Notes: generated by a model not told the origin, from the letters alone. Positions 711 to 33,714 are shown, counted from the first letter of the whole stretch. The stretch: DNA of 59,195 nt, filler included, from Jimgerdemannia flammicorona (GCA_003990765.1; 3 parts of 3 records of this genome joined end to end with filler, not necessarily neighbours in it), one strand, 5' to 3'. Numbers and translations: made by a program.

Positions 711-1488
711 GCCAAGGAGGAGAAATGTGTGAAGTACAATCTCGAAATGAGGGGAAGAATGGGTAGGGTGTGTGAATGGGTGAATTTCAAGTGCCGATTT
801 TGTCATTTTCATTGATTCAATAAAGAACTTAAAGAACTGATAAGAACTGATGACGCGTTGGATGATGCGGATTAGTGCTAAACCTCCCTATCCGAATTTG
901 GATTTTGCTCATGATGGTCCGATCCTCACGATGGTCCGCCACATATATTAATATATTTTTTATTTCTAATAATTTATTTTTGATTTATTTCTAATTTTCA
1001 ATGATATTTTTATTTATTTATTCTAAATATCTTAGATAATATTTTTAATATCTTATAACTTTTTTTTATCTTTAATTGTATTTTTTATTTAATAAAGAAT
1101 TATATATATATATAGACAAATTTGCCTGTAAAATATTATAGCATATGTAAGAGTTAAAGATAGATTATATTTTTTTCTTAAGTTAAAATAATAATAAATA
1201 ATATAATTTTAGATTAAATTAAAGATATAAGTTAGCTTGAATTATAAAATACTATTTATTAGTAATATTGTAATGGTATAGCCAGATTCGGAAGAAGAAA
1301 ATAGGGAACAGATACTTGATTGCATTCAGTCTCAAAGTAGTATAGCTACATAGTTAGTAGTCCTCGATTTCACCACTTACTAAATATTTCGCAAAGTGTG
1401 AGATCAAGCTTCTCAATATAGTATAGCATTTCGCAACTGGTGAAATATTTTGCAAAGTGTTAAATGACTCATAACTTAGCTACATAAC

Positions 1489-3562
1489 TGTAAGAGGGTT
1501 ACTTTTTAAGGTGACCGTTACATAGTTCTAGAAGGGTTTTCTGGATATTCTGGATGTTCTAGAAGACTGTTTTCTTATGGTCAAGATCAATTTCGTATGG
1601 AGTATGTCCTCTACGCTTATTGATTTCAAGATTGGGTTGACGTCTCAACCAAAGTCCTTTTTCGGACTAGTTCTGGATGTTCAGGATTTTCTGTATTTCA
1701 GAAAGTTCAAGAAACTAAGACCAGCTTAGTTGAATTGGCGTATCGCTGCAGACAATACCCAATTAGGAAATTTCGTGACAGAGTTAGGAGTAGGACCTAA
1801 CAGGGAGCGGATTTACTTAAGAGTGATTTGTGGGTTATGGAATAGGTTTATTTGCTATTCATGATATTGCTATACTAGGAGTATTTGTGTGAAGGGATAT
1901 TGTGGGGAAGTGCTCAGGAGTTGTGTTCGGATTGTTCAAGTCTATTCGAGTCTGAGATTCTGAGGTCTGGGGGAGGGGGTATTTATACTAGTAAGGGGCT
2001 ATCTAGACTATACTAAATATGGATGTAGCACTAAGTGCCTTGCTGAGTCAGAATGCAGTCACGTAGTACAAGTGTGATCTGACATGTCAAGAGATTGTCT
2101 GACTGCTGAGTCAGTTCACAGTCACGTTGTACAAGGCTAATCTATCTATACTATGACTGCTAGACTATTTATAGGTTTAGGCACTATCTGGGTAGTCTTC
2201 GATGATATCACCATCGATTGCATAATCTCTGATGAAGTAGTCATCTAGGAAGAGTGGTTCGCAGATTACTTTTCCTTGTTGGCTGAGGTAGTAATACATT
2301 GGGACTTCATCTCCATCCTACAGGATAGCATCGTCTGTTTCGTATGCTGAATAAGGTGTTGGTAGGCGAAGGATGGGTGTATTGTCTTCACTTTCATCAG
2401 ATTCGCTGTCTGCATACCTTCTATAGATTACAGCACTATGAGTCGCGGGGTTGTAGTAAGCTGGCGGCTGTGGTTTAAGTTGCTCGTACTCAGGTGGTGG
2501 CGTTGTTGGTTCAATCTCGAGAGTTGTCTGGAGGTACAGATTGTGTTCTCCAGTCTCTTCATTGTAGTTGAAGTAGTCGGGGGTGAACGCGGGTTGGTAT
2601 TCGTGCCAGTGGTCATTGTCCCAATAAGTCTCGTATGCAGTTATGAACTGTTGTAAGTTCATCGGCAAGGTTGGTGGAGTGATCAGGGTTGGCAGAGATC
2701 CTTGGCTAGAGGTCATGTCAGTGTCAGAGGGATCATTGTCTTCTGCTTCGTCTTCATCGAAGTGGATTATATTGTAGACATCCTTCATGATATATCTGAC
2801 TTGAGGCATTTGTAGGATATGGTCATCGGGGTGCGGGAAGGTTCTGTCTGTGGTCTGGACGTATTTGAGGTACTTGTGGTTGATTTCTTGTATCATATCG
2901 TCAATTTGGCCATAGGACAGGGTAGCGACCATTTCGGTGGTAGTGACTCGGAGGCGGAGAATAAAGGTGCTGTACTCATAGAAGAGTTCTCGATGTTTGC
3001 GGGTGATGAGCTTCTGGTGTTGAGATATCTGGGTAATGTCTGTATCATGGTGGTATTCAACCATGTCTTCCAGGAGGCGGCCGATCTAGTAGTAGCTTGA
3101 GATTTGTTCAATTCGGTGGGCCTTGCTAAGCATGTTCAGGGCATTCCATCGGGCTTCCACGAAGTAGAGGGGTGCCAGGCTATGGATATTCATGAGGGGC
3201 AGAGGGGGTGTGGCTCAGTTGACAATGGCATTCCAAATGTCAGCGCGGATGCAGTTGTAGATCTCAGTGGTCATGTTTGTGTGTTTCGAAGTTGTGGTTG
3301 TTGTTTGTTTTGGTTCTCTGATTCGACGTGTCTCGGTGCTCAGTATATATGCATTTGGTCCTGATTGGTAAGGTTCCATTTGTGTAGATCTTGTGTTCCG
3401 TGACTTCGTATTGACTCAGCTTTGTGCGCTGTGACTTCGGTTTGACTCAGCTTCGTGATCAAGCAGGTGATTTCCAGATTTGTTCAGAGGTCACGTGTGA
3501 TTTCAGTGGCTTGTTCAGAGGGTGATGTGTAATTTTGGTGGCTTGGAGGTTGTGTGCTTACA
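1489..3562 (-). mobile_element. Solo LTR of family B (2074 bp), antisense, with 5-bp TSD ATAAC
   Basis: TGTAAG…CTTACA termini, ATAAC at 1484-1488 and 3563-3567, and reverse-complement match to 11030-13061. Confidence 0.93.
2177..3274 (-). pseudogene. LTR-encoded accessory ORF of family B (about 365 aa ancestrally; two premature TAG stops)
   Basis: ATG at 3274 to TAA at 2177 in one frame, including track ORF 2318..3064. Both stops are sense codons (CAG, TGG) in the 11286-12380 copy. Confidence 0.85.
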
Positions 3563-3868
3563 ATAACCCAGTAACCATCTCATAGCTAGCAAACTTATAT
3601 AAATAACCCAGTATCTTCGAGTGAATAAACCTCAGATCAAAATAGTTCAAGTAAAGAGATAGCAAAGGAACTAGTAAGCCTGTGGGCAGATACACTTCAA
3701 ACTCACCCACCCTCTCCTGCAACTCAAAGAACTCTGAGGAGTCAGAGAAGATCAAGTTTTCAAGATATAGAAATCTGATGTACTTTCAAGAGTAAGCATC
3801 TGCCACATTACAACTTGGTACCTATTGGCTGGTGATTCAAGACGAATTCCTCACTTTCAAGCTGAATA

Positions 3869-9076: not shown

Positions 9077-10261
9077 GGAGCTGTACTACAGAATTATCAG
9101 CTACCTGGGGCAGCGAAAGATGCCCTCGCATCTGGAAGAATGGACAAAAACAATTATTAATCAGACATGGAAACAATTTGAAACTGATGGAGAAATACTT
9201 AAGAAAGGATAACAATTAGTCATTCCCAAGTACCAGAAGAATCAAGTAATGAAGAAAGTACATGAACAAGGCTATGTAGAAGGAACAAATATATATGACA
9301 AAGCAAGAAGAACCATGTGGTGCCTGAAATGGAAGAAGATATCAGACAATTTGTCAGAACCTGTGACAAATGTCAGAAACAGAAACAAGACCAACAAAAC
9401 CAGGCCCCGGGATCAGCATGCATAGAACCAGTACCATTTGCCCACATAGCAATGAATGTAATTGGCCCTCTACCCTTGACCCTGACTGGTAACTGATATA
9501 TCATTGTCATTGTAGACCTTTTTACGAAGTGGATAGAAGTAGGACCCCTCAAGGAAGCTAATGTACAGTCAATCACTAATTTCTTCCACAAGGAAATCAT
9601 CTGTCAGTTCAAGACCCCAACACAAGTAACTATAGATAGAGGAACAGAATTCGTGAACTAGCTCTTTGAGGTTCTCTACAAGAAGTATAAGATCCAGCAC
9701 ATTCAGACCACAGCCTATCACCACCAAGGAAATGGACAAGCAGAAAGGACCAACAAGACCCTCAAGAATGTTATCACCAAGATCTGTAATAACTATGAAA
9801 ACTGAGATCACTATCTGCCAATAGTATTATCTGCTCTCTGGGATATCAGATCACAAAGTACCCACTTTATCTCCTGGGAGATGCTGTTCAGAGAAGAAAG
9901 TTCTAGTGGAAGTTTGTCAGCAAATAATGATGCAGTCTGGAAGCATATGGATATGGAGATATGGAGATTACATCAAATTAGGAAAAAGGCAGAGAATTAT
10001 ATAATCAAGGCATAGGCACTACAATGGAGTAATGCAGAAAAGATCCACAAGCCCGTGGAGATTATTAAGATAGGAGATGAAGTCCTGGTAAACTAGAACA
10101 TAGTAGAAGCTTCTTGGTCATGAAAACTGGAGCCCAAGTGGGAAGGACCTTACCTGGTGTAAGATATAAAAGGGACCACTTTCCAACTATGAAAGCCCTC
10201 AGGCACAATAATCCCCACCACCATTCACTGAAACCAACTTAAGAAATATCATGGCCAGTAA
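9069..10261 (+). pseudogene. Integrase of element A, starting at its own ATG
   Basis: FVRTCDKCQK zinc-binding part, VIGPLP, IDRGTEF and GNGQAER core, KWEGPY C-terminal motif; disrupted. Confidence 0.88.
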
Positions 10262-10730
10262 TAAAAGTACTGCAATGGCACTCAAGATCACTAGTACTGC
10301 CCAAAGAGCCATCAAGAGACAATGGCATACCACCAAGCCTCTGACTATAGAGAAGTCTTATGATAGTATCCAAAGCATTGTACAGACTCATCTCTCTCGA
10401 ATCTCACACTTCAAGGCCTATTAGCATCAAAATGAATTTCAAGAGTACTTAAAACTTGGCCAAGTACTCAACCAAGACCCAGAAATGACCAAAGAAAATT
10501 GGATCGCAGAATGCCAGCTCTCCTATTCCCAGATCACCATTGCTAAGAGAATCTATAAGCTATTCCAAGAGGATGAACCAGCACTAGCCCACCTGTGAGA
10601 AGTGACTCCCTCAGACTTCAACCAAGTCAGGTGACACTATTGGGAAATAGTAATGCAACAAATCACACAATACAAGACCATATAGACCATTGAAGCCTAG
10701 GAGTTTGAATAGATGCTTCAAGGATGAGAT
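10251..10730 (+). pseudogene. Accessory ORF3 of element A, similar to the LTR ORFs of families B and C
   Basis: Hand translation from ATG 10251: …QEYLKLGQVL…ITIAKRIYKLFQEDEPALAHL*EVTPSDFNQV…. The stops are consistent with C>T or G>A decay. Confidence 0.65.
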
Positions 10731-10749
10731 CATCTATTCAGGAGAAAGT

Positions 10750-11029
10750 TGTGACAGTATAGCCAGATTCAGAAGAAGGAAATAGGGAACAGACACTTGA
10801 TCACACCCAGTCCCAAAGTAGTATAGCTACATAGTTAGCAGTCCTTGATTTTGCTACTTGCTAAATATTTTGCAAAGTACAAGATCGAGCTTCTTGATAG
10901 TATAGCATTTCGCAACTGGTGAAATATTTCACAAAGTGTTAAATGACTCATAACTTAGCCACATAACTCAGTAACCATCTCATAGCTAGCAAACTTGTAT
11001 AAATAACCCAGTATCTTCGAGTGAATAAA
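10750..11029 (+). repeat. 3' LTR of element A (5' part; interrupted by element B, remainder not seen)
   Basis: Direct match to 1269-1488 plus 3568-3629; TATAAATA at 10998-11005. Confidence 0.9.
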
Positions 11030-11285
11030 TGTAAGCATACAACCTCCAAGCCACCGAAATTACACACGACCTCTGAATAAATCTGGAAATCACCTGCTTG
11101 ATCACAAAGCTGAGTCAAATCGAAGTCACAGCGCACAAAGCTGAGTCAATATGAAGTCACGGAATACAAGATTTACACAAACAGAATCTTACCAATCAGG
11201 ACTAAATGCATATATACTGAGCACCAAGACATGTCGAATCAGAGAACCAAAACAAACAACAACCATAACTTCCAAACACACAAAT

Positions 11286-12380
11286 ATGACCACTGAGATC
11301 TACAACCACATCCATGCTGACATTTGGAATGCCATTGTCAACCGAGCTACACCCCCTCTGCCCCTTATGAATATCTATAGCCTGGCACCCCTCTACTTTA
11401 TGGAAGCCCGATGGAATGCCCTGAACATGCTTAGCGAGACCCACCGAATTAGACAAATCTCAAGCTACTACCAGATTGGCCGCCTCCTGGAAGACATGGT
11501 CAAACACCACCATGATACAGACATTACTCAGATGTCTCAACACCAGAAGCTCATCGCCCACAAACATCGAGAACTCTTCTATGAGTACAACACCTTTATT
11601 CCCTGCCTCCGAGTTACTACCAGTGAAATGGTTGCTACCCTGTCCTATGGCCAAATCGATGATATGATACAAGAACTCAACCACAAGTATCTCGAGTATG
11701 TCAAAACTACAGACAGAACCTTCCCACACCCCAATGATCATATCCTGCAAATACCTCAAGTCAGATATGCCATGAAGGATGTCTATGATATAATCCACTA
11801 TGAAGATGAAGCAGAAGACAATGATCTCTCTGATGCCAACATGACCTCTAGCCAAGGATCTCTGCCAACCCTGATCACACTGCCAAACTTGCCGATGAAC
11901 TTACAATAGTTCATAACTGCATACGAGACTTATTGGGACAATGACCACTGGTATGAATACCAACCCGCATTCACCCCCAACTACTTCAACTATAATGAAG
12001 AGACCGGAGAACACAACCTGTACCTCCAGACAACCCTCGAGATTGAACCAACCACTCCACCACCTGAGTATGAGCGACATGAACCACAGCCACCAGCTTA
12101 CTACAATCCTGCAACTCATAGTACTGTAACTTATAGAAGGTACACAGACAGCGAATCTGATGAAAGTGAAGACAATACACCCATCCTTCGCCCACCAACA
12201 CCTTATCCAGCATACAAAACAGATGATGCTATTCTGTGGGATGGAGATGAAGTCCCAATGTATTACTACCTCAGCCAACAAGGAGAAGTAATCTGCGAAC
12301 CACTCTTCCTAGACGACTACTTCATCAGAGATAATGCAATTGATGGTGATGTCATCGAGGACTACCCAGACAGCGCCTAA
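11286..12380 (+). pseudogene. LTR-encoded accessory ORF of family B (364 aa; one premature TAG at 11907-11909)
   Basis: A single frame runs from ATG 11286 to TAA 12378-12380. The one stop is CAG in the solo-LTR copy. Confidence 0.87.
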
Positions 12381-13064
12381 ACCCATAAATAGCCTAGCAG
12401 TCATAGTATAGTTAGATTAGCATTATACGACGTGACTGTGAACTGACTCAGCAGTCAGATGATCTCTTGACATGTCAGATCACACTTGTACTATGTGACT
12501 GCATTCCGACTCAGCAAGGCACTTAGTGCTACATCCATATCTAGTATTGTCCAGATAGCCCCTCACTAGTATAAATACCCCCTCCCCAGACCTCAGAATC
12601 TCAGACTTGAACAATCCGAACACAACTCCTGAGTACTTCCCCACAATATTCCTTCACACAACTATGTACTCCTAGTATAGCAATATCATGAATAGCAAAT
12701 AAACCTATTCCATAACCCACAAACCACTCTTAAGTAAATCCGCTCTCTGTTCGGTCCCACTCCTAACCCCATCACAAAATTTCCAAATTGGGTATTGTCT
12801 GCAGCAATACGCCAATTCAACTAAGCTGGTCTTAGTTTCTTGAACTTCCTGAAATATGGAAAATCCTGAACATCCAGAACTAGTCTGGGAAAGGACTTTG
12901 GTTGAGATGTCAACCCAATCTTGAAATCAATAAGCATAGAGGATATACTCATATGAAATTGATCTTGACTATAAGAAAACGGTCTTCCAGAATATCCAGA
13001 ATCTCTAGAAAACCCTTCCAGAACTATGTAATGGTTACCCTAAAAAAGTAACCCTCTTACAACT

Positions 13065-13076
13065 TGGTAGCAGCGG
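13065..13076 (+). promoter_or_regulatory. Primer-binding site TGGTAGCAGCGG (resembles the complement of an initiator tRNA-Met 3' end)
   Basis: Lies 3 nt after the LTR end. A near-identical TGGTAGCAGCAG follows the LTR of element D. The tRNA identity is inferred. Confidence 0.7.
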
Positions 13077-15094
13077 TTTATAATCCAATTCCACTTCAAG
13101 ACACTTCCTCACCCTGCTACAAACCCTTCTGAGAATTCCTACAAGTTGGTATAAAGCCCAACCACTGAACTGGAATTTATCCTGAACCATCTGACAATCT
13201 GGAGAGAATTGAACCTAATGTACAAGGACAATTTGACCTCCATACCTGCAACAAGTGGGATAAACTTCATTCAAAGAAAGAAGTACTCCAGTTAAACCAG
13301 CAAATAGATGAAACCCTATTCACCGAACTCCTTGCACTACACCCAGCAAGTCAAGACAAAGAAGGTCTTATTGAAGCCTTCTTTACTCTTCTCAACAAGA
13401 GTTTTGTCAGCTCCACAAATCTGAGCAACCTAGGACAACCAGCAGCAGTCTTTCTAGCCTTAGTTCCTCACAAAGCCCAAGCCTCTGTAGCCAAGTGGTT
13501 CAACTCTACCAACTTTCACCATACCAGGACCAAGACTACCTTATACTACCGATTCCAGAACAGCAAGGCCTGCTATATCCTTAAAGAAGAAGCAAGAGAA
13601 ACCCTTCATCAACTACCTAACCCCAAACCTGAAGCAGGCCCTGCTACAGCCCTACCTGAATCCGAAATCAATACTGAACCTGAACTTGACTTTGAATTAA
13701 GTTCATCTGAAATCAGATATACAACTGATTCTGTCTACTTTGATGCCAAGCAAACCCAATTACACGGGGACCAAACCGAAGAAGAGGAGGAGTATCTCAC
13801 CGAATTCGATCCTGGATACACCACTGAAGGAGACACATGCCCATCAGGACAGAATATACCTACACAGCAACAAACAGCTATCTATCAAGCTCTTACTCCA
13901 GATCCACAACTACTACTCTAGCAGCTTACACAGACTCAAAGAACCCCATCACACTCTGCACCAGTACCTCAAGTAGTACCAGTAACACTACTATCAGCAG
14001 TCCAACCGCCTCCAGCAATCAACATGGTGAACCAATAGATTCTTGACCTCACAGCCCAAGTAGCTATAATGGCAGCAACTATTACTGCCTTAGCTGAACA
14101 GACCTGACCTACCAAAAATCTGAGCCTACCTACCTTCAATGGTACTGTACAAGAAGTCCAAAGCTTCATTAGTATAGTTGATACCAACTTTGAAGCCAAT
14201 CAATGGACCAATGAGCGAGTTGCTGACTGTGTTCTGACAAACAATCAAGACCACACCCTAGAATAACTCTTTGCTACCACTACAGTCTATGTCCGCTGAG
14301 TTGTTACATTCTTCCGAGGACCTGCCGAAGAATGGTGGCGAACCCTTCCTGAAAAACCCCTCACATGAGATACCCGATCTGCAGTAGTTGCTCAGAATGT
14401 AGCAAACAATGCCCCAGGATATGGAGCCCATCCTGCAGCCCCTGGACTCAAACAACTCATGATTGCTCAATATCGCAGCGAAACTATGATTGCTGAATCT
14501 CGAGCAAAACTCCGCAACCTCAAATTCGATGTACATGGCAAAGAAGAATTTGAAACCTTCTGTACAAAACTCGAGTCACTCCTGAACACTGTTGGCCTAG
14601 GATACATTACCAATGACAAAGCACGAAATAGTACAAGAGCAGACCATTTATTTGATGCCCTGCCTGAATGGCTTACTAGAAAAATCTAAGAACAAGGCCG
14701 CCCAGTTGGTTGTGATCACCAACAATGGTGCCTGGCAAGAATCAAGACCATGGTCAAGCGAATCCTAACAGCTGGACCAATTCTGCCCTGAAGGCAATTC
14801 AACAACAAGGAAAAGACTTAGACCAAGAAAGAAGAACCCAAGTATGAAGCATCCCGAGCTCCCTCCACATCCACCTCTTGGACACCCAGAAATCCTGAAC
14901 CCACCCAGCCCAGTACCTTCAAGAAACTTACTGAAGGTGAAAGGAATGAACTTTGAAGAAGTGGAGCATGTTTCTATTGCTGAAAGACAGGACATATGGC
15001 CAGTGCCTGCCCTAACTGAAAACCCCGAACAGCAACATGAACAACTGTCACCACTCTATACCACCTCAACAACCTGACCACCAGAACACTAGAC

Positions 15095-15497
15095 TTTGCC
15101 AAGTTAAGATAAACTGGTAAGGTCCCAACCAAAGGAAGTCAAAAAGCAGCTGGATATGACCTGTATGCAGCTGAAGAAGCTACAGTTTCCAACCAAGAAG
15201 TCAAACAAGTCTATACAGGAATCAGTATCCAAATCCCTGAAGGACATGTTGGAAGAATATGCTGTTACAGCAGTCTAGCACTGAAAGGACTCTCAGTAGA
15301 AGAAGGAGTCATTGACGAAGATTACACAGGCGAAATCATTGTCCTCATTCGAAACCACAGTTGGACACCCTTCAAAATCCCTATTGGTTTCTGCATTGCC
15401 CAGATCTTGTTCGAAAAAATCGAGTCAACCCTGACAGTCAAGGAAGTCCCTGAACTACTACCCACCATCTGAGGATCCAAAGAATTTGGCTCATCAA
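15095..15497 (+). pseudogene. dut: dUTPase domain between gag and protease (element B)
   Basis: Hand translation gives KAAGYDLYA, SSLALKG, GVIDEDYTGEI, IAQILF and EFGSS. Confidence 0.9.
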
Positions 15498-16553
15498 ACA
15501 AGGCCCCAGCCCAACCTACTATGAGCAAAGAAGAATAATTCTACAAGAAGATAGAAGATGAATATGTACCAAGTGGCCAATGCCCTCATGGTATTGGAAT
15601 GTACTCTTCCCGAATGATTGATAATTGCTTCTCTTGTGTCAATAAACTGGCTTAAAGAAGAACCAACAGAAGAAAGGCTCCTATAACTGAAATCACCACA
15701 ATTGGATCAGACAAACTGCTCACCCTTAAAGCTTTTGTCAATGGAGCACCTGTCAAGATTATGATAGACAGTAGTGCCTCAGGCAACTTCATCAATGAAG
15801 AGACAGCCAACAGACTCAAGGTCTTCACCTTCCCTATACAGCAAACTCAAGCAGTTGCTACAGCTGATGGAACCTCACATGTTATTAGCAAAGAAGTCCG
15901 CAATCTACCCTTCTGAATTGGCGACTACCGAGTATATGTTACCCTCCAAATCATACCACTTCCTGACAATGAAATCATCCTTGGGACTCCATGGTTAAAG
16001 CAAGAGAACCCCATGATTAATTGGGTAAACCATTCTCTGACCATCAAGAAAGGACACCACAACTTCAAACTATAAGGCGAAAAGGACTCACTCAACTCTA
16101 GTGACCCTGGACCAAAGATCACCCACATCAACAAGCTACAACTCAAGAAATTGGCCAAGAAATGTCCTCTCTTCACCATCTCCATCTGACCATCCAAAGG
16201 AGAACCTGAGAACTCTGAAGAAGATTTTTCTAAAGTTGACAGCCATGTCAGACCACTACTCCAGAAATTCCGAGACATATTCCCAAAGAAGCTCCCGAAA
16301 GGCCTACCTCCCAAATGAGCAGTAGACCATGCAATCAAGACTATCCCAGATGCCAAACCAGCCTTCAAGTCAATCTACCACATGTCTCCGAGAGAAATTG
16401 ATGCACTCAAAAAGGAAATCAACGAACTCCTAGAACAAGGATTCATCAGACCCAGCGTATCACCCTATGGTACACCAGTCCTCTTCGTTGTTAAGAAAGG
16501 AGGAGACCTATAGATGTGTATTGACTACTGTGATCTCAATGAACAGACCCAAA

Positions 16554-19305
16554 GGCACATCTTTCCTGGTAACATTCAGGTTACACAACCCTTTGGCAAC
16601 ACTTTCGACATAGTTTCTGGAGAAAAGCTACTAGTATCATGGCAACCAACGAGCATCCGGAGGTGCGTACTGGGCAGGGTAGCCCTAGAGCATTTGAATG
16701 GCAGCAAGTGGGGAGAGGCCCCAGCTTGGGGGGTAGTATGAGGGGCCTGCTGGTGGGGGGCCATGGTGGAAGAGGGGGCAGAGCTGGAGGTCAAGGGTCT
16801 GGCAGGGTGAGCTTTGCGGAGAAGGTGAAGGGGAGTCGGTAGGGAGTGAGACTGGAGAGCTGGCTGAGAGGGGGGAAGGTACCGGTGATGGCTTCTAGGC
16901 AGTAACCTCTTGGGGGTGCCTCTCTGGAGGGCCATAGGAGTGGAGCTGGGGGGGTAGCAGCTGGGGTGGGGACTGCTGATGGGGGTGTGACAGGTGATCT
17001 GGAGAAAAATCTAGATGGGACTGCTGATGGTGAGCCGAGCAGTGGGAAGGCCCAGGGACCTGGCGGATGGTGTAACGGGACTGGCGGTGGCCCCATTACT
17101 CAAGAAGTCGATCTTAGTGTTCGCAGTCATACTGTGCTTCTGGGGCTTAGCAGTGACGGCAAAAATGGTGTTGGGGCTTATTACTAAGCAGGTGATGGGA
17201 GCGGCTTCGGTGAAGTTTCTGAAGGGACTGGAGGGGGTAGAGGTGGGATTTGAGGAGGTGGAACTGCTGGAGGAGGTGCTGAAGATTGGGTTAGTGGTTG
17301 GGGAGATGTATGTTCCAATGGCGAGGTGTTTGAAATGGGATCTGAGGGTGGTCCAACTGCTGGTGAAAGGAGTACCCACAGTGATGGTGATGGAGATAAG
17401 GAAGAGAGTGGAGGATGTCATGGCGGAGTATGGAGAGGTAGTGGATATCGGATTCAGAGTCTGGGAAGGGACCACACTCAGGACTGGGGATGTGGGTGTG
17501 AGGATTCGGCTGGCTGGGAAAGAGGCTACCGGGAAGATGAGAGACTGGCCTTCAGTATTGGTCTGGGGGGCTTTCCTGTGCAAGGTGACATGGGTGAAAG
17601 AAAGTGAAGAAGAGGAGGAAGATTTATTGGAAGCACTGGAGGAGCTGGATGGAGCTGTGGAATAGCGAGCTAAGGCCTGGAAGACTTTCGAGGAGTCGAT
17701 ACTCCTGGAGGTGGTGGATGGAAAGAGGATTCGAGTGGACAAGGTGCAGTGAGAAAGGGCTCAGGGGTAGAAGAGGCAGAAGGATTTGCTGGCTAAGCTG
17801 GGGGGTGGACAACAGAAGGATGCAAGCATGAAGACAGATACAGAAGGGGCCGGAGCGAGTGTCTGGGCTGGTGAGAGGAGTGGGAATGAAGGAGCAGGGT
17901 CAGGGAAGGCTAAGGAGGTGAAGATTAGAGACCTATATGCTGACGGCACCTTGGAGATTTGGGATGACGGCTGTGAGAACTCCCCCACCCCTTCCCCTCT
18001 AATCAGGTAGGGCCCAGCTTCCAGAAACAAGCCTGGGGAGGACGTGACGATACTGGGAACCCAGCAGGTGAAATTCAGCATTCTGGAGGTATTGGATGGG
18101 GACCAAGTAGTGGCAGCAGGGGAGGAGGAACTGGTGGATGTCCTGGAGGTGTGGGATGAGGACGCAAGTGCAGGAGCAGACACTATAATGCTGGATGGAG
18201 GGAGGCTGGCGACCCCTGGTGGAAAGGAGGTAGGGAACCTACTTTGGATGTGCCGGATGATGAATAACCTAGTGGCAGAAGAGCTGGGGGAGGTGGACTT
18301 GCATGGGATGGGTGACAAGTACTGGATAAGAATTTTGTAGGAGGAAGGAGTGGCAATGGCACTGAAGGTGGAAATTCTCATGGTGTATCTAGAGGAGGAA
18401 GAGTATGAGGTGGATAAGGAGAGGGAGGTGGAGTTGGCGGTGGTCACTGGGGAGAAGGCTGAGTACTGTTGGAACAGGCATCATGGGTTGCAGCTTTGGC
18501 AGGAGGCTTGCATTGAGTTCCGAGAGGAGTTTGAGGAGAAGGCTAATAAGGAGATGAATGAGCTGTTGGCTGGACTGGAGGCTCAGAGGGCTGAAGAGGA
18601 GGAGGTGATGGCTGAACATAATCTGGACATGGCACAGGAGGAGAGGGGCATGGAGCAGTAGGATTGATTGAGAACAAACCATATTTTATTATGAACAGTA
18701 CAACCAACATTTTTTCTTTGAACGTGAATGGGCTAAGGGGTGCAATTAGACGCAGGAACATTTTTCTTTGGTTGAAGGGATTGGAGGCCAATCTCTTCCT
18801 CTTGCAGGATGTCAGGTGCGAGGATGATGCTAATAGGATGGAATGGACTAAGGAATGGGGTGGTATGGTGATTTGGAACAGCAAGGTTGGGATTCTGGTT
18901 CGGAAAGGCAGAGGGGAGATAAAGGATGTGAGGAGCTGAGGGGAGAGACTGGTCTGGGGTGAGTGGATTTGAGCAGGTTGGGAGCCGGTCACAGTTGGCT
19001 CCTGTTACTGCCCTGCAGTGTGGGGGGAGCATGTGGATTGGGTGAAAGGACTCCTGGAGAGTGGGATCCTTACTGAAGCTGGGTTGGATATGCTTGGAGG
19101 AGATTTCAATATGGTTCGAGATGTATGGCTGGATAGAACTGATGGAGGATGGGGTATGGAGAGCAGGAGTGGGGGGTTAGTGACATGGGAGGAGGTTGAA
19201 AGGCTAGGAGCACTGGTGGATGCTGGTAGGGAGCACTGGGGGGACAGGAGAGTATATATGCATTGGGCTGGAGGTCTGGGGACAAGGATTGATTGGATTC
19301 TGATG
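16554..19305 (+). mobile_element. L1-like LINE family 1, 5' part (ORF1 16639-18661, APE endonuclease from about 18691), inserted in RT of element B
   Basis: 5' UTR nearly identical to 53454-53540. APE motifs SLNVNGL, GGDFN and RIDWIL. Confidence 0.88.
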
Positions 19306-19666
19306 GCCCGTCTTGCCCGTCTTGCCCATGTTACCCGCGTCTTACCCGTATCGTTTTGCCCGTTTTGCCCATCTTGCCTATGTCATCCGACTTGCCATCT
19401 TGCCCATCATGCCCATGTTACCCGCCTTGCCCGTCTTGCCCGTCTTGCCCGTCTTGCCCGTTTTGCCTGTCATTTTGCCCATTTTGCCCGTCTTGCCCAT
19501 GTCGCCTGTCTTGTCTTGCCCGTGTTGCCCATCTTACCCATTTTGCCGGTCTTGCCCATGTCGTTTTGCCCATTTTGCCCATCTTGCCCATGTCGCCCGT
19601 CTTGCCATCTTGCCCGTGTTGCCCACTTGCCCGTTTTGCCTGTTATGCCTGTCTTGCCCATTATGT
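19306..19666 (+). repeat. Degenerate 9-bp minisatellite (GCCCGTCTT/GCCCATCTT)
   Basis: Directly visible; abruptly replaces the LINE sequence and runs into the gap. Confidence 0.92.
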
Positions 19667-19766
19667 NNNNNNNNNNNNNNNNNNNNNNNNNNNNNNNNNN
19701 NNNNNNNNNNTTAATTAATTAANNNNNNNNNNNNNNNNNNNNNNNNNNNNNNNNNNNNNNNNNNNN
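19667..19766. other. Artificial contig linker
   Basis: 44 N + TTAATTAATTAA (stops in all six frames) + 44 N. Confidence 0.97.
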
Positions 19767-19985
19767 AAAAAAAAAAAAAAAAAAAATACCTGCAATATTT
19801 GTAAGTAACTTCATTTTCTCCAGTTTTGGTACAGTATTGCCAAACTTCAGAATGAGAAGCATAGTACAGAATATTATTTAAGGAAGGCTGAATATTGTTC
19901 AAGGAAGTCTAACTTAAAGTATCATCAGTATTGGAAAATACTGATAACTGATCTATTGATATTGATGTTGATATAGTGTATATAT

Positions 19986-22206
19986 TGTGATGTCTACAAT
20001 TGACCCTGTCCAAATTCGGAGTACCCTGTGACCACAAGATCAGATGACATTATGGTGCGATAACTGGTGACCAGCCCAATCCATCAAGTGATTTCACCAA
20101 AAGAAGACAAGATGATCCGAGCCAAAATGAAGACCATGTTATTTAAGGAACCATACTCTGCCTCAGGGATTAGCACCAAAGAACCAAGTACCCACTATAC
20201 AATGCCTCCCATTCGCCGATCCAACCAGACTTCCTGCCGCTCTACCCCTTTGCCTGGCCCAAAGACTCTGATCTTTGAAGCTATCAAGAAGGCCATATGG
20301 TGCCCAGATACTTCCGAACACTTGAACTTCTATACTGAGGACCTTGGACACTTCATCAACTACCAGTATATAATGACCCAACAGCTCAAAGATACTACCG
20401 AATGAATGACCCTCTGGCATGACTATGAAATCAGACACTGTCTTTGCAATGAAACTCAAGAAGATGACCAGGAAGGCCTCATTACTGAGTTGTTAACCAC
20501 CAGCCGGCTAATCAAGAGAGCCCTCCGTGTTTACCAAATCTTCCGCCATATCCCCTGGGCTATAGCACACTTACAAGGAGTGACTGCTGGAAGTCTTGCC
20601 CGCCTCTCAACTGAAGATGCAGACTGGATAAAATCTGAAGTAGCCAACTCTATTGGCAGCAACTGCATCGCCGTAGGAAGTCAACAAACCAAACCTACTC
20701 AGCCAGGTTTCCACACCACCCCACTCCGAGACAACTATCAAGGTCATCTAATAAGTCTTATGGAGATATTTGAAGGACTGCCCATTACCATAGAAGTACC
20801 CATTGGAGCTACCCCAACCACCCACCACTCTGTCAGCCACAATTCACATCTCATCATTTGGGAACTGAATCAAGAAGAAGCCCAAGAGGTCTCCATCTTT
20901 AAAGAGGAAGCCCAAGAACTCCAAGACCCTGCCCCTGAAGAAACCCCCTCTGATACTGAAACTGATGAGTCTCAAGAAGAAGAAGAGGAGCAACAGAGAG
21001 TCTACCAGTCCTCTGTCCGCATTCAAGCTATTCAAGGGTTGGAGAATGTTGTTGAAGATGACTGGCCACTTTTCTACCCCCTCACCTCTTGGCCGGTACT
21101 TCCCCCCTTTGAGGAGAGATATGATGAAGAAGAAATCGCAACCCAGCAAGATTTGCCTGCCGCAGATGAAGGGTACTACTATTCCCTCTAGAAGTACCAC
21201 CCGTCAGCCGTGAGAATTGTGCAGCCTTCATGTCAGCAAGTCAGCAAGTCCGTTTTCAGTATTGCCACCCTCCATAACTGTTTCTGGCAACAATCATCAT
21301 ATTATGTCAGCAAGTCCGAATCCAGCATTACCACCCACAACATCCATATCCAGCACTAGCACTCATCTTATCCCTATTCGGCGCAAACAATTGTCACACC
21401 CATTTTCAGCATTGCTATTCCCTACAATCCAATCTGTAGTAAACAATAGCCTACACCTTGCATTGTGCAAGCCAATAGCATAGCGAAGTTCACTACAACA
21501 TAGTATACCTTAGCCTTAGTCGTGCCCCCCCCCCCATAGCTAGCAAACTTGTATAAATAACCCATATTCTTAGAGTGAATAAACCTCAGTCAGCTTGTGT
21601 TTAAAAGTAAAAAGGATTACTGAGAAACCTCACTGCCTCCAAGAGACTGGATAAATTCTGAGAACAAGATAACAACCTAGAGCAACGGATCGCTCGGAAG
21701 TTTGAGTTAAAGAATTTTCTCTTGCCACGGAAAGAAAACATTACCCGCCATTCGACTGCCATTTGGACCGCGCATTCGACCGCCGCCATTCAAGATTCAA
21801 GACCCAGAAAACCAAGGACCCAAGGATACCCAGCCAAACAAGACCGCAGCCTAAGACCCGCCAAGATATTCGAATGACCGCCAGGAACCTTTCAAGTTAA
21901 CAAGTCAAGACGGACGAGCGAGCCATCAACCTCCATTTTCCCGACCTACTGCGCCACGGACCGCCTTAATTGACCGCATAAAGAGCAAGACCGTCAAAAC
22001 CGTCGCCGCATAGATTCAAGTTCGCCGCCAAGTTATTCGCCGCCCTTTTCCACTAAAAAATTGAGCCATCGACGTCCTGAGCCCATCATCGTTGAACAAT
22101 CGAACGATCTCCCGCTATTATTACCGCACGAATCGAACGACCTGTCACGTGACCATCGACCCGTAACCGCCGCGAACGACATCAACGCCTTCAGATATAC
22201 ATCACG
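19986..22206 (+). mobile_element. Probable solo LTR of a third family (C), about 2.2 kb, with internal ORF
   Basis: Imperfect inverted termini TGTGATGTCTA…TATACATCACG. The TATA/AATAAA block at 21535-21589 is almost identical to that of LTR A, and the layout matches LTR B. No clean TSD. Confidence 0.62.
20202..21191 (+). pseudogene. LTR-encoded accessory ORF of family C (one in-frame TGA at 20403-20405)
   Basis: Track ORFs 20067..20405 and 20406..21191 share a frame. Motif KRALRVYQIFRHIPWAIAHLQGVTAGSLARLS and an acidic C-terminus. Confidence 0.72.
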
Positions 22207-22304
22207 CGCTTCACCAAGTGGCACACATTGAGCCGTGCAGTCGAAGTTTATTATACATAACAGACGCCACAATATGTAGGGAGAGGTGGGTGGTAATGAA
22301 AAAT

Positions 22305-22393
22305 GCGTACGAATGTACAGAAGCGCAGAACGTAAGTGTAACGTGCGTACGAATGTACGGAAGCGCAGAACGTGAGTGTAAATCGCGTACGAA
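22305..22393 (+). repeat. 40-bp tandem repeat, about 2.2 copies (GCGTACGAATGTAC[A/G]GAAGCGCAGAACGT…)
   Basis: Directly visible. Confidence 0.85.
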
Positions 22394-22914
22394 GTGTTGG
22401 GTGGAATGAATGATGGATTACATGTAGAATTAATGCGCACACTGCGCTAATACCATAAAAGGAAACCTACGCCCGATTTACATATGCCTTAAACAAAAAC
22501 ATCGGCGTTAAAACATTTTTGGGCGCTAGGCGCCCAAGACATACCTGCATTCATTGACCTGTGGTCTCGAACGAGCCCACTCATTACCTTCAAACCCTAA
22601 CGTGTATAAATACGTCGATAACTGATTCAACTTATATACACCTCTTTACGCTCCCTTTTCACATACACTCTAGAAGACACATATTCCTAGCACGACTCAA
22701 TTTGTTATTGGTCAAAAAGTCAACGGAAAGACACATAATATCGTCAAACTTTCCATATCGGAACACCGCCAAACATACACTTTCAATGCTAAAACAGACC
22801 GATATCGCATGTATGAAATAGACAACTGTTCCTATTCTCTCGCAACTGCCGACCACAGTTCGTCAACTTGGTTCTCTTCCGTCCTTCCCGATTTGTCTCA
22901 GATACGAGTTTCAT

Positions 22915-23400
22915 GACAGCGTAATGTCGAACGGCTCCCAACCTGAGGACCTACTCCCTATCATATCGACATATTTCCGACTGGTGTATTGGACCGAAGT
23001 TCCACAGTCACTCGGATACACGCCAACCTCCTGCCTGCGCTCGCCGGCGACGCGATAAATCAAAAAACGCCGAATCCAGGGCCAATTCGTCAGCAGACCT
23101 ATGCCAACCCACAATCTTTTCCATTTCCTCCTAGCGCGAATGTCACCTCACTGACGTGCCCCGCAGCCACTTTCTTATCCAGGCTTATTCCGTATAAAAA
23201 CTGTCTAGACTTTTCGAGGAGGAAAAGGCGATGTACATAGCGTTCATCATACCGATAGCATCACCAAACGTAACCCACCTGGAAATTTTTGCGCCAGATG
23301 CAAATTTGATAAGAAGGGATGGCGAGGTGCACCCTGCAATCGTTGTAATCACTTCGGTAGGCTTTGCTATGTCGATGATTAAGTAAGGCGATCCTCATAT
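22915..23400 (+). pseudogene. Paralog 1 of the Zn-cluster gene, disrupted
   Basis: GDAINQKTPNPGP…IPYKNCLDFSRRKRRC*, then KRNPPGNFCARCKFDKKGWRGAPCNRCNHFGRLCYVD; aligns with 28910-29261. Confidence 0.85.
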
Positions 23401-24539
23401 AGACTTTGCCGCCAACTTCTACGGACTCGCTTTGTCGTCAATCGAATTAGCATGTTCCAACTACCATTTGACTAATTTACTATGGTATGCACTTATAGTG
23501 AAAAAAAAAAAAAAAACGACTCCTATTTTATGCATATGGCACATATATTTATAATTGTATGTATATTTGACTAGTTATTATCAGTTTACACATCAATACC
23601 ACAATAAGACTAAAATAAATCGAAATTTTTAAGGCATACATTTCTTTCTCGATTTTGGATTTCCACCTTTAATGACGTGGCATATCTAATTGAGCAACGA
23701 CAGCATATGTGGGTCTCGCGATAGGTTGCACTGGATCGCCAAGTCACAACTTACATATTTATTGTCATCACGGTTCCGTTCCACTGCGTCTTATCCAATG
23801 GGTAATGACTGTAGGTTCCTTCTGCATGAGAACTTCCATACAAGCAACAGTTAGCATAGCTTCTCCAATATTATCTGCGCAGTCAGTTTAGCAAAACTCA
23901 GAAGCTATATTATGAGGTGGCTCGCACTCACACAGTCTTCCATCGAAATCGTGTTCCCGGGTTTATTTGCGCAAGTTTTAAATTCGACATGTTGTCCTTC
24001 CCTCAATGTTTCTATGCAATCGATATTTAAGCCCGATATATATATAATGTGTATATATGTATATGTCTTATTTGGGATGTCCGAAAAAGGAAGAGGATAC
24101 GAAAAGGGAAAGGACTATAAAGTCCAGCCCGGCCCGGCAAAAGCAAGTATGGAAGTTGAAAGAGGAACCCAAGGAGGGAGATGGTGGGCGGGAAAAAGGA
24201 AATGAGCGGTAGAGTGAATGAGTGGTAAAGCGGTAAAGCTGAGTGTCCGATGTGTGTGTCTAAGTAGCGTATGTCTATCTTAGGTACTAGCTAGCGTACA
24301 TGGTTTGCATAGGTTGCCCTTTGGCGCAGAGTGTCTTTGGCGCCGAATGTCTTTGGCGTCGAATGTCTAGGACCGGCGTGTAAGACCTCTCCGCCCACTC
24401 CTAACCTGCGACTGCATGTAATTAATTGATGCATGTCCATTGACTCGTAATCTCGGTTGATATTACATATTTCTACCGGCCATCGACGTTGGATGCGTTC
24501 TTTCGACACAGCGATATGGAGGGGCGCCTGTAGCATTGT

Positions 24540-24880
24540 CAGCCATCCAACCCCTCGGTTGAAGTAGCGTCGGAGCTAGGACCAATTCTACAGCAGTTCT
24601 CTGCTAGCCAACATGAATATTGCCCTAATGCAACCACGGCCACTGCCATCCCTTGGCCCATTCCGTATAAGGAATGTCCCGAGGAGGAGCCGATGTCGCA
24701 TTCATGCTACTGGCAGGGCCACAAAACGAAACCCTCCCGGAATGGTGTGCGTTGGATGCAAATTGGACAAGAAGGGATTTCTTGGAATGCCCTGCACTCG
24801 TGGTAAACACTTCGGCAGGATTTGCCACGTTGACTATAAGTAGATGGCCCTACTTCTCAAGCACCGCCAACCTTCTACGA
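24540..24880 (+). pseudogene. Paralog 2 of the Zn-cluster gene (3' part, frameshifted, two Cys lost)
   Basis: RCRIHATGRATKRNPPGMVCVGCKLDKKGFLGMPCTRGKHFGRICHVDY in ORF 24613..24843. Confidence 0.88.
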
Positions 24881-25609
24881 TTCCGTGTGTTCCAAAAAAC
24901 AAAAAAAAACAAATGGTTTGATACAATTGTATGATATATAGTTATTATGAGGTAAAGAACTCAAACATTGTGATATGTAAAATATGTATAAGCAAATCTA
25001 TAGTTAGGCATATCTTATTCCAAAATTAAGAAGAATTATGTGTGGATATCTTTTTTTAACTTTGGATTTCTACCTTGAGTGAACAGGGCACCCTAACTGT
25101 TGGTTCCGTTTCATTGGTGTCTTAGCGTGCTGTGTGACAAGAGTATTCAAACGTCGTGCGAATGGCAATAACAGTCGCATCTGCAGGGTGCCTGATCAAT
25201 ATTAATAGGCGTAAAACCACCCAAAGGAGGTGAATCGCCCGAAACCACGTGCCGTAGGATCGCTGGCCATAGGGTAAAATAACCCCACGGTAATTTTTTA
25301 AATGTTTCGCTCTTCCTGAACAGGTTCCTTTCGGCCGGGCGAAAGGCGAGGCTTTACCGATCGACGTAGGTTTTTGGAATGACCGAAGGCGATTGCACAT
25401 GATCATTATATAATGCGCCAATCCGCTGTTGGTTACAATTTTGCTCTCCGTGACCGAACATGCCCCATAACAATGCCCGAAGAGTTATCACCGCTTAGTT
25501 CGGCTTCTGGTATTTTCGCTCCGTTTTACCTTTCTAGGAAGGGGAATGGTGTATGTTGTCCTTAATTTTCAAAGTTGTGTAAGCTGTATATACTTGCATC
25601 GAAACATGC

Positions 25610-27790: not shown

Positions 27791-28577
27791 ACAAACGTGT
27801 AGCCAAAACATTCCCATCCTCAAAATCTGAGAAGAAGAAGAAAGCATACAAAATTAATAATAATGTTGGCATGCATCGATGTAAATAATGCTGACACAAC
27901 GTTGGAATTAAGGGGCATATACGCCAGCTCTTCCTCCTAACGTAAAAAACAAAACAAAATACAAAGTCATACACGGGATGTTGAACTAAGCTTCGAGCAT
28001 TTCTATGGGTCAAAGGGAGCAAAATCGCAACCGAATCTAACCTTGGAATGGTATGCAAAATAATGACCGTGTGGATCGCGATTAGATCCGGATAGAGCCG
28101 GATTTCGGGAAGTCGATATGTAGCCAAAAGGATATTCGAAAGCTCTATTTCAAACATGTGATCCAAGCAGTCTGGCGATGTAGACAGCCGGGTCAGGCTC
28201 GGACCATCTTAAAGCCACTTGTGCAACCGTTTCACATGCAAGAGCTGGGTACGGTATGCTAATTCATTCCCTTTTTTTAAAATATGAATTTCCGTGCAGA
28301 GCTGCGTATAGTTTGGATAGTAATTATCTTCCTCTTTTGTTCATGTGTGTGATTTTTTTCCAACTCGCCGTCAACACTGATCTTCCGTGCAGATCTGGGT
28401 ATGGTAAGCAATTTGCCAATTTTCCTCTTTCTAACAATTTTCCAAACAGAGCTGCATAATGTAAGTGTTGTAATTGTACAGAGTTCATCCATATGTTAAT
28501 GTATGCTGCCCCACACAAAGTTGTGTGTATAAAATGGGTTCCTTTCGCTTACTTTGCCCATAGTTGTCATTAAAACC

Positions 28578-29261: not shown

Positions 29262-29399
29262 ATCTTAAACGCCGACATCCTCAGACGATTTGTGTATATG
29301 ATCAAAAGAAAAAAGAAAAAAAACGTTATACTTATGGAAATTTTTTATATATTAGTTTACATACTATAACCAAGAATAAAATCGTAGATTGGATTTGAG

Positions 29400-33680: not shown

Positions 33681-33714
<34 letters not shown>

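Follow-up and report, generated by a model that had tools for sequence, protein, structure and literature searches.

Three decayed open reading frames (ORFs), here called A, B and C, in a 59,195-nucleotide stretch of DNA from the soil fungus Jimgerdemannia flammicorona (the window, filler included; three contigs joined by N44-TTAATTAATTAA-N44 linkers) are probably copies of one previously undescribed accessory gene, the third after gag and pol, of dUTPase-bearing Ty3/Gypsy retrotransposons. What is established of this explanation is the homology of the three ORFs, the constraint on their coding sequence and the placement of A and B. The peptides that a first-pass annotation had quoted for the three ORFs were found at their coordinates and in their frames, and its claim of a conserved third gene is borne out in that one family joins A, B and C, intact ORFs are present in relatives and purifying selection is indicated between the B copies.

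Copy A lies at the 3' end of an element with the following parts in the window:

1269..1488, plus strand: 5' LTR of element A, first part, 87% identical to 10749-10968 (boundary by alignment)
3563..3812, plus strand: 5' LTR of element A, second part, with TATAAATA at 3598-3605
9213..10261, plus strand: integrase of element A (matches to Pfam Integrase_H2C2, the H2C2 zinc-binding domain; reading frames)
10251..10712, plus strand: ORF A, the A-type accessory gene, 153 codons with five premature stops
10740..10749, plus strand: polypurine tract AGGAGAAAGT, read from the sequence, directly 5' of the 3' LTR
10750..11029, plus strand: 3' LTR of element A, with TATAAATA at 10998-11005

Ty3/Gypsy elements (Metaviridae) are defined by a gag zinc knuckle and by protease, RT, RNase H and integrase in the order PR-RT-(RH)-IN between LTRs. 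Element A belongs here by its LTR pair and its Pfam domains, which follow each other as zf-CCHC, RVP_2 (weak), dUTPase, RVT_1 and Integrase_H2C2. A solo LTR of the B family is nested in the 5' LTR and splits it, flanked by the target duplication ATAAC at 1484-1488 and 3563-3567; joined across this insertion (1269-1488 plus 3568-3812), the A LTR has 465 bp, and the LTR pair is 87% identical. The second part of the 5' LTR ends with CACATTACA, followed by ACTTGGTACC, a PBS-like sequence, and the 3' LTR breaks off at 11029/11030, where element B is inserted. The integrase terminates in ...WEGPY...NQLKKYHGQ with the stop TAA at 10259-10261, and short ORF A is located, as initially described, between this stop and the 465-bp 3' LTR starting at 10750. 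Its proposed end at 10730 had to be corrected: judged from the intact 153-aa relative P0028, to which ORF A is 76% identical, the native stop is 10710-10712, 37 bp upstream of the 3' LTR, which places ORF A outside the LTR and sets it apart from a sag-like, LTR-internal gene.

The ATG of ORF A at 10251 falls inside the last integrase codons in a different (+1) frame, with no room for a promoter between the two, as would be expected if the A-type ORF were not a gene of its own but prolonged Pol at its C-terminus, by way of a frameshift where it overlaps the integrase stop. This we consider very unlikely, since the nine A-type database proteins have been called as short stand-alone ORFs, five beginning with the same Met as ORF A and four with an internal one, and since the B and C ORFs possess their own ATG hundreds of bases away from any pol sequence.

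The separate accessory gene is met in a second arrangement in element B and in a solo LTR of the same family:

11030..13061, plus strand: 5' LTR of element B, 2,032 bp, TGTAAG...CTTACA
11286..12380, plus strand: ORF B, the B-type accessory gene inside the LTR, 364 codons with one premature stop at 11907-11909
12570..12577, plus strand: TATAAATA of the B LTR, 190 nt past the stop of ORF B
13065..13076, plus strand: primer-binding site TGGTAGCAGCGG of element B, read from the sequence
13169..15913, plus strand: internal region of element B with a gag-like ORF, dUTPase at 15113-15469 and aspartic protease at 15656-15913 (Pfam)
1489..3562, minus strand: B-family solo LTR with the ends TGTAAG...CTTACA, 2,074 bp; read in reverse, it is 91% identical to 11047-13061
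2177..3274, minus strand: B-type ORF copy in the solo LTR, 365 codons with three premature stops

Element B is truncated to 5' LTR, primer-binding site (PBS), gag-like ORF, dUTPase and protease, and the Pfam scan of the window detected nothing recognisably Gypsy 3' of the protease. The placement of its ORF within an LTR of about 2 kb, followed by PBS, gag, dUTPase and protease, was confirmed; in both LTR copies (11030-13061 and 1489-3562) the whole ORF precedes the TATA box, and, translated, the ORF of the solo LTR is 86% identical to the forward copy over 411 residues. As the domain order is PR-dUTPase in A versus dUTPase-PR in B, with dUTPases 38% identical, A and B are assigned to different Gypsy lineages.

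The three types are connected predominantly through profiles. The motif columns noticed by eye (Y-x-[IL]-G-x2-L; A-[KR]-x-x-x-x-F; L-x2-V-T) correspond to the best-conserved columns of the family alignments, and pairwise comparison gave z=5.0 for A-C, a score reached by none of 300 shuffles, versus z=1.3 for A-B and z=0.7 for B-C. An HMM of C-type database proteins, scanned over the six frames of the window (396 chunks), placed A (E=3.6e-4) and then B (E=0.05) next after C itself, and the two match HMM positions 6-151 collinearly. Profile-profile alignment, proposed in the first-pass annotation together with structure prediction as a check on the three, was significant with hhalign for the C-family versus the A-family (P=3.4e-6, probability 88%, 79 columns) and for the C-family versus the B-family (P=5.7e-4, 129 columns, probability only 30%), the B profile being shallow with three sequences 87-91% identical to the first. 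Direct likeness between A and B was not significant, neither by hhalign (P=0.084) nor by an A-only HMM on B (E=3.6 and 2.6); B joins the family only via C-type or combined profiles. With a combined HMM of 20 C-type and nine A-type database proteins, and no sequence from the window, the six-frame scan recovered B with E=3.7e-6 and the solo B copy with E=1.1e-4, noise starting from E=3.6, and the two B copies were, besides A and C, the only matches above noise. Past the N-terminal domain, MAFFT aligns the B blocks HILQ...DVYD, G.LP and EPLFLD with blocks of the C clade.

The insignificant A-B comparisons, the low hhalign probability for C-B and the weak score of the more decayed solo B copy with the C-only HMM (2.5 bits, a value that 24 of 1000 shuffles attained) might be taken to mean that only A and C are related and that B is an unrelated orphan gene which arrived at the matching place in the LTR by convergence or independent capture. 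We regard this as unlikely, as the hhalign P value fell from 0.29 via 0.0063 to 5.7e-4 when the profile was widened with sequences unrelated to B, the HMM E-value for B improved from 0.05 to 3.7e-6 with the wider profile, and the alignment is collinear over about 130 residues with more blocks aligning in the tail. Furthermore, P0027, an intact protein of the B type, attains 33.5 bits with the combined HMM compared with a maximum of 7.7 among 1000 shuffles, although residue shuffles lose helical periodicity and may thus flatter all-helical proteins. On these profile comparisons, A, B and C are homologous, with a likeness beyond chance.

Equally, the substitution pattern speaks for coding function. 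Between the two B copies, dN/dS is 0.22 and substitutions are distributed 31/16/50 over the three codon positions (chi-square p=1.3e-4); one indel (3 nt, in-frame) is found in the 1,095 nt of the ORF versus eight in the 937 nt outside (Fisher p=0.014), and each of the copies has its premature stops at codons of its own. Metagenome proteins and the relative L001 provide intact ORFs, of 325, 324, 331, 342, 271, 247, 292 and 153 aa. That decayed repeats contain these open frames by chance, with a coincidental motif, as the chance-level pairwise scores of A-B and B-C could suggest, is refuted by the low dN/dS, the preference for third-codon-position substitutions, the avoidance of the ORF by indels, the intact relatives, the significant profile matches and a confident fold model. 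By these signatures the accessory gene is a real gene, with the B copies under purifying selection.

Common to the A, B and C types is an N-terminal all-helical domain of about 150 aa, of which the A type entirely consists. In the B and C types it is followed by a conserved middle block and by an acidic tail, about 150-200 residues long, which is rich in proline and aromatic residues and closes with a short hydrophobic motif (PLF, or P-x-[IV]-L-N-F). The acidic tail had already been noticed in B and C, where it has 20% D+E and 3-4% K+R, and is indeed restricted to these types; tail composition ranges over 18-24% D+E, 3-5% K+R and 7-14% aromatic residues. Structure prediction succeeded in part: AlphaFold2, provided with a 25-sequence family alignment, modelled the A-type P0028 confidently as seven helices (pLDDT 86.3, pTM 0.78), and a C-type protein modelled with no other sequences than those of the C type came out poorly (pLDDT 39). 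Among 25 members scanned, no Pfam family matched more than one member (best E-value 0.026, none at the gathering score), and the accessory ORFs of the window matched no Pfam family. The N-domain model gave no match at E<=0.001 with Foldseek against the PDB nor in BFVD, and the best VIA-align Z among 48,161 chains was 4.9. One DUF3102 phage protein (probability 0.69, TM 0.44) is recorded as a lead only. The description of the gene as non-env is upheld, as no stretch hydrophobic enough for a membrane anchor is present in seven proteins (maximal Kyte-Doolittle 19-residue mean 1.07) and no Env-like signal or membrane segment was found in these members by a simple hydropathy scan, not a dedicated predictor. 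The accessory protein is accordingly predicted to be soluble.

The surroundings of the third copy are less complete:

20202..21191, plus strand: ORF C, the C-type accessory gene, 329 codons with one premature stop at 20403-20405
19800..21745, plus strand: candidate C-type LTR, with TGTAAG at 19800 and a possible end ...CATTAC at about 21744
21535..21590, plus strand: promoter core of the C region, with TATAAATA at 21552-21559, near-identical to the core of the A LTR (alignment)

ORF C, 77-80% identical to the intact 325-aa protein P0001, lies 435 bp into the second contig. No integrase likeness was detected in the approximately 400 nt upstream and no gag or pol domain in the 8.4 kb downstream (three frames read through). 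A related metagenome contig reads ...GTTACA where the candidate LTR would end, and metagenome contigs of other LTR families have only the promoter core in common. Location of the ORF inside the LTR, originally proposed for both B and C, is thus shown for B only: neither a second copy of the C region in the window nor a target duplication was found, and a PPT-like, LTR-start-like sequence 3' of ORF C (GAGAAT followed by TGTGCAGCC) counts against C being inside an LTR.

The DNA context of one relative, L001, could be assessed. Here, a clear GGAGGGAGGA followed by TGTAATAAG is present 3' of the ORF, an A-type layout, with no integrase likeness in the 375 nt upstream of the ORF. No relatives of the family were found among known retroelement proteins, and the database relatives come without context, so that, accessory ORFs of LTR elements being often captured, a host gene might have been taken up once or repeatedly by a Gypsy ancestor, the present copies being passengers and not an original part of the element. 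We judge this quite improbable, as no relative has a Pfam domain or a host-like annotation, the relatives are all found on short contigs, L001 carries a polypurine-tract and LTR-start signature directly 3' of its ORF, and the same slot is held in two Gypsy lineages of differing domain order. An old single capture and a gene original to the element do look alike in the present data.

The order of integrase, ORF, TATA box and R/U5 is complete in A, and B and C show the part from the ORF to R/U5, without integrase here. A and B differ in the start point of the LTR: in A, polypurine tract and LTR start lie 3' of the ORF, which leaves the gene internal and the LTR at 465 bp, whereas in B the LTR starts 256 bp upstream of the ORF, so that the U3 of the 2,032-bp LTR contains the whole gene. 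Being wholly in U3, the gene is present in both LTRs of B and stays behind in solo LTRs. The A-type layout is suggested to be the older one, with the B LTR having been extended upstream over the gene. A 14-nt motif, AGTATAGYYAGATT, has four matches in the window versus 0.06 expected, two 7 nt inside the A LTR starts and two about 25 nt past the stop codons of the B ORFs:

12405..12418, plus strand: AGTATAGTTAGATT, candidate relic of a former LTR start, the motif occurring otherwise only at the A LTR starts

Within the B LTR, the motif would seem to be the remnant of an LTR start of the A type. The earlier notion that the gene was absorbed into the LTR has gained this one supporting item; the reverse direction is also possible.

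TATA-like boxes 54-80 nt upstream of the ATG in B, C and L001 suggest that the gene may be expressed on its own. The accessory protein might then act in trans as regulator or adaptor of the element, its helical domain binding a target and its acidic, aromatic tail recruiting a host factor; activation or anti-silencing of the LTR promoter would be the likeliest roles, a proposal that we offer tentatively. The conservation of the A type without a tail fits an activation-domain model poorly.

To our knowledge, it is rare for a protein gene to be situated wholly within an LTR, and most known cases come from a handful of retroviruses. The sag gene of mouse mammary tumour virus (MMTV), the 'LTR ORF' in U3, encodes a membrane glycoprotein. 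As with MMTV sag, the complete ORF lies inside U3 in B and thus in both LTRs; unlike sag, to which no sequence or fold likeness was found, the accessory gene encodes no hydrophobic segment, is carried by a fungal Ty3/Gypsy element and is present outside the LTR in a sister lineage (A). Complex retroviruses carry regulatory genes (foamy virus Tas/Bel1, HTLV Tax and HIV nef) that follow pol/env and precede or overlap the 3' LTR, nef overlapping U3, and Tas consists of a binding domain and an acidic activation region. The 3'-end slot is alike and the B and C types resemble the two-part build of Tas, but there is no homology, the A type has no tail, and any regulatory function of the accessory gene is putative. 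VANC proteins are anti-silencing proteins of the VANDAL (Mutator-like) DNA transposons of Arabidopsis; small, element-encoded and without a known domain as well, they provide a model for how such a gene might pay its way, although they belong to another transposon class and kingdom and are likened by description, not by sequence. Errantiviruses and Athila carry an env-like ORF3, equally a third ORF downstream of pol, from which the accessory protein differs by having no signal or membrane segment. Some Gypsy elements of fungi have been depicted with an 'add. ORF of unknown function' in a study that also describes fungal dUTPase-bearing Gypsy families with a variable dUTPase position (PMC2864245). 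This additional ORF is likened to the accessory family by its description, not by sequence, and the accessible portions of the literature on additional Ty3/Gypsy ORFs yielded none that place such an ORF inside an LTR.

One gene family on both sides of the LTR border in related Gypsy lineages of fungi offers a natural comparison for how LTR borders move, and lets one ask what an element gains from an accessory gene that is doubled into both LTRs and survives in solo LTRs. Without a known domain or fold, yet conserved over at least three divergent types in soil metagenomes, the family lends itself to study as a possible new class of retrotransposon-encoded factor in very repeat-rich fungal genomes, and its recognition is of value for annotation, where such ORFs are otherwise masked as repeats or called orphan host genes. 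More doubtfully, the gene could be a transactivator or anti-silencing factor for its own LTR promoter that, in B-like lineages, moved to U3 with its own promoter. If so, every LTR, solo LTRs included, would be expressible as a gene standing by itself, the regulatory genes of complex retroviruses would have a counterpart in fungi, and a trans-acting factor would still be supplied to the retrotransposon family by thousands of otherwise dead remnants.

All three contigs of the window consist of decayed retroelements and are joined by linkers (N44-TTAATTAATTAA-N44, at 19667-19766 and 39433-39532) with stops in all six frames; as these linkers join separate contigs, features are unreadable across them. 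Scanned against Pfam, 90 and 138 stop-to-stop ORFs yielded only Gypsy domains, namely zinc knuckle, aspartic protease, dUTPase, reverse transcriptase (RT), RNase H and the integrase zinc domain, together with a LINE-type RT. Fungal Gypsy families bearing a dUTPase at variable position are described in PMC2864245. Two carrier elements, A and B, are assigned to different lineages because their domain orders differ (protease-dUTPase in A, dUTPase-protease in B) and their dUTPases are 38% identical.

Landmarks of the carrier elements A and B
1269-1488 plus 3568-3812, + strand: 5' LTR of element A, 87% identical to the 3' copy; the two define a 465-bp LTR
From 10750, + strand: 3' LTR of element A, pairing with the 5' LTR and cut at 11029/11030 by element B
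1489-3562 (2,074 bp), reverse strand: B-family solo LTR with TGTAAG...CTTACA ends and the 5-bp duplication ATAAC, splitting the 5' LTR of element A
11030-13061 (2,032 bp), + strand: 5' LTR of element B, 91% identity with the solo copy
13065, + strand: primer-binding site TGGTAGCAGCGG of element B, followed by a gag-like ORF, dUTPase and protease

Both B-family insertions went into LTRs of element A, at ATAAC (1484-1488 / 3563-3567) and ATAAA (11025-11029); A/T-rich sites in LTRs may be preferred targets, or this may be due to chance. A LINE-like element (53260-55581 and 57104-57907, both +) comprises an open 774-codon ORF without Pfam match and then an RVT_1 ORF; a fragment at 16557-19201, located after the truncated element B, is a copy of the first ORF at 70% identity, and the end of the first contig is occupied by a tandem array of ~9-11-nt, CCCGTCTTG-like units (19306-19665). 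On the second contig, an inverted repeat (30767-32200 / 32885-34291) with arms of ~1.4 kb, 67% identical, could be either a DNA transposon or the product of a palindromic rearrangement; smaller inverted pairs lie nearby, and between 36001 and 38000 the G+C content falls sharply to 25% versus 40-50% elsewhere.

The accessory ORFs of this retroelement landscape are the following.

Accessory ORFs
10251 to native stop 10710-10712, + strand: ORF A, stop placed from the intact 153-aa database relative P0028; five premature stops
11286-12380, + strand: ORF B, 364 codons, one premature stop, wholly within the LTR
2177-3274, minus strand: solo B copy in the solo LTR, three premature stops at codons different from those of the forward copy
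20202-21191, + strand: ORF C, 329 codons, one premature stop, starting 435 bp into the second contig

The peptides quoted for A, B and C in the first-pass annotation are all present in the window. Its placement of ORF A between integrase and a ~465-bp LTR is equally borne out: the ATG at 10251 overlaps, in another frame, the final three integrase codons together with their stop (...NQLKKYHGQ, stop 10259-10261), and the native stop lies 37 bp from the LTR and 27 bp from the polypurine tract AGGAGAAAGT. Of the span proposed for A, 10251-10730, the start stands, and the end moves to 10710-10712 as judged from P0028. ORF B, described as lying inside a ~2-kb LTR, indeed falls within 11030-13061, with 256 bp separating it from the LTR start and TATAAATA located 190 nt beyond the ORF.

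The accessory ORF is a real gene, conserved as had been claimed. When the two B LTR copies are compared, a single indel (3 nt) falls in the 1,095 nt of ORF versus eight in the remaining 937 nt (Fisher p=0.014), and substitutions are distributed 31/16/50 over the codon positions (p=1.3e-4). Counts of 48 synonymous changes on 225 sites and 46 non-synonymous changes on 855 sites give a Nei-Gojobori dN/dS of 0.22, a rough value because this method ignores the strong transition bias here. Furthermore, intact relatives of C (324-331 aa, 77-97% identity) exist in the protein database, more distant intact ORFs measure 342, 271, 247 and 292 aa, nine A relatives include an intact 153-aa protein, and a 128-aa fragment related to B begins at the same methionine. 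Across the window, repeat copies differ overwhelmingly by transitions, which account for 88 of 97 differences in the B ORF, and the premature stops compared between the two B copies are of the type produced by a C-to-T or G-to-A change; both fit a deamination-type decay, of the methylated-C or RIP-like kind.

In line with the non-env reading, the encoded protein is not env-like: a hydropathy scan of seven family members shows no hydrophobic segment. Pfam gave no family match for 25 members scanned (best E-value 0.026, from a single member), and the PDB sequence search no match (best E=2.2). Modelled with AlphaFold2 from a 25-row family alignment, P0028 folds into seven helices (pLDDT 86.3, pTM 0.78); the C-type model, built on 14 C-type rows only, is unusable (pLDDT 39). 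Foldseek comparison with PDB and BFVD returned no match at E<=0.001, and the best VIA-align Z of 4.9 is the noise level for helical models. Beyond the helical domain the C clade carries the conserved block P-[IL]-L-x-D-N-P-D-Q...F-[EQ]-G-P-P-I, loosely matched in B, and after it B and C continue into the acidic tail already noticed at first reading, with 18-24% D+E versus 3-5% K+R, abundant P/W/F/Y and a terminus PLF or P-x-[IV]-L-N-F. The A type has no tail.

Whether three such divergent ORFs form one family was addressed by several comparisons. Full-length pairwise alignment gives z=5.0 for A-C, reached by none of 300 shuffles, z=1.3 for A-B and z=0.7 for B-C; with the N-domains alone, A-C ranges over 3.2-6.7 and B-C over 0.7-4.2, depending on the matrix. 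In tblastn over the window, A and C are each the best match of the other (E=0.055 and 0.28). One full HMMER pass of the C profile over 1.84 billion representatives recovered eight proteins, four of them divergent, and when the C-only HMM built from them is run on the six frames of the window, C itself is followed by A (E=3.6e-4) and then B (E=0.05), both collinear with HMM positions 6-151; noise sets in at E=0.7, ahead of the solo B copy (E=4.7), which matches weakly, with a score reached by 24 of 1000 shuffles. A mixed-alignment database search collected 18 proteins (8 C-clade, 9 A-type and 1 B-type). With an HMM of C plus A, built from 29 database proteins and no window sequence, B rises to E=3.7e-6 and the solo copy to E=1.1e-4, noise beginning at E=3.6. 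The intact B-type protein P0027 scores 33.5 bits against this HMM (shuffle maximum 7.7, n=1000) and 18.6 bits against the C-only HMM (shuffle maximum 6.7), with shuffles that do not preserve helical periodicity. The A-only HMM misses B (E=3.6 and 2.6 for the two copies). The likeness first seen by eye has a mixed outcome in hhalign with separate family alignments, holding for C-A (P=3.4e-6, probability 88%) and C-B (P=5.7e-4, probability 30%) and failing for A-B (P=0.084).

B alone against a 5.8-billion protein set produced 72 candidates and none at E<=0.01, under a length window that left out the 128-aa relative found later. Scanning metagenome contigs with a four-sequence alignment gave one locus among 223 pattern matches; the family was found in none of 80 stretches from viral contigs and none of 35 from prokaryote genome contigs. 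In the ESM Atlas, B had no usable match and every cluster matched by P0028 (0.92-0.95) was unnamed or unrelated. A weak B tblastn match at 44880-45098 (E=2.0) was dropped because a LINE reverse-transcriptase fragment lies at that place. Element D (40224-43722, minus) was considered for a further family member in its 5' LTR, and the region upstream of its primer-binding site is a LINE-like fragment without family match. As the B score increases steadily when unrelated sequences are added, and ~130 columns are collinear, A, B and C probably belong to one family, on evidence from sequence comparison that is good, if not final.

ORF C had been placed inside an LTR like B. In favour of an LTR starting at 19800 (candidate 19800..21745) are a TGTAAG at 19800 that adjoins unrelated poly(A), the ~400 nt upstream of ORF C without integrase likeness, and a TATA-like box 54-62 nt upstream of the C ATG. 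Against it count the lack of a second copy in the window and a polypurine-tract-like, LTR-start-like sequence directly 3' of ORF C. Equally, ATATT precedes 19800 and no CA followed by ATATT is found downstream as target duplication of a solo LTR, no primer-binding site resembling the B type follows the candidate, and nine read-through frames over 21745-30146 (8.4 kb) match no Pfam family, gag and pol included. Metagenome contigs from four runs, with 85-99% likeness over ORF C and the promoter core, are too short for an LTR border at 19800 or 21221, 19790-19957 being nearly uncovered; the seven matching sequencing runs listed have small shares (0.05-0.13) and include no RNA. Directly after the candidate LTR, 21745-22250 is CpG-rich with repeated CCATTCGAC/GACCGCC motifs, in contrast to the transition-worn neighbouring elements, and related metagenome contigs extend into it.

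In A, B and C alike the ORF is followed by 190-360 nt, TATAAATA and R/U5; what differs is the start of the LTR, downstream of the ORF in A and upstream of it in B. The promoter core of ~55 nt is nearly identical between the A and C LTRs, and in metagenome contigs it is the only part that other LTR families have in common. The window contains four matches to the motif AGTATAGYYAGATT against 0.06 expected, two of them 7 nt inside the A LTR starts and two ~25 nt past the B ORF stops. In the B LTR it can be read as the remnant of a former A-type LTR start, which supports an upstream extension of the B LTR over the gene; alternatively, its presence in both layouts would reflect a shared functional element. 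The absorption of the gene into the LTR, as originally proposed, stands for B as regards the ORF lying within the LTR, and for its direction the putative relic is one piece of support. The sole relative with DNA context, L001, with an intact 292-codon ORF, has GGAGGGAGGA abutting TGTAATAAG directly after the ORF, an A-type layout; its 33-nt direct repeat (170-202 / 1481-1513, 82%) is too weak to be considered an LTR.

What these analyses show is a soluble protein of two parts, conserved and under selection, whose gene lies at the 3' end of the element; in B this gene is duplicated into both LTRs and retained in solo LTRs. TATA-like boxes, common in AT-rich DNA, precede the ATG by 69-77 nt in B, 54-62 nt in C and 73-80 nt in L001 and suggest that the accessory gene would be expressed independently. 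Its product would serve the element in trans, with LTR transcription or silencing as the likeliest point of action. Complex retroviruses carry regulatory genes at the 3' end, and by this analogy, along with the folded domain and the acidic, aromatic tail, a regulator is possible rather than probable; the protein might instead direct integration targeting or serve particle assembly. That the A type is conserved without a tail points to a separate function for the helical domain.

In a full-text literature search, neither the family nor an LTR-internal gene of a fungus came up; the text of PMC2864245 mentions an 'additional ORF of unknown function' drawn for certain Gypsy elements of fungi. Neither accessory ORFs nor LTR-embedded genes are new as kinds. 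New would be that an ORF3 internal to the element in one lineage and genes carried by the LTR in another probably constitute one family, and that the shift of the border between A-type and B-type layouts may have left a traceable relic.
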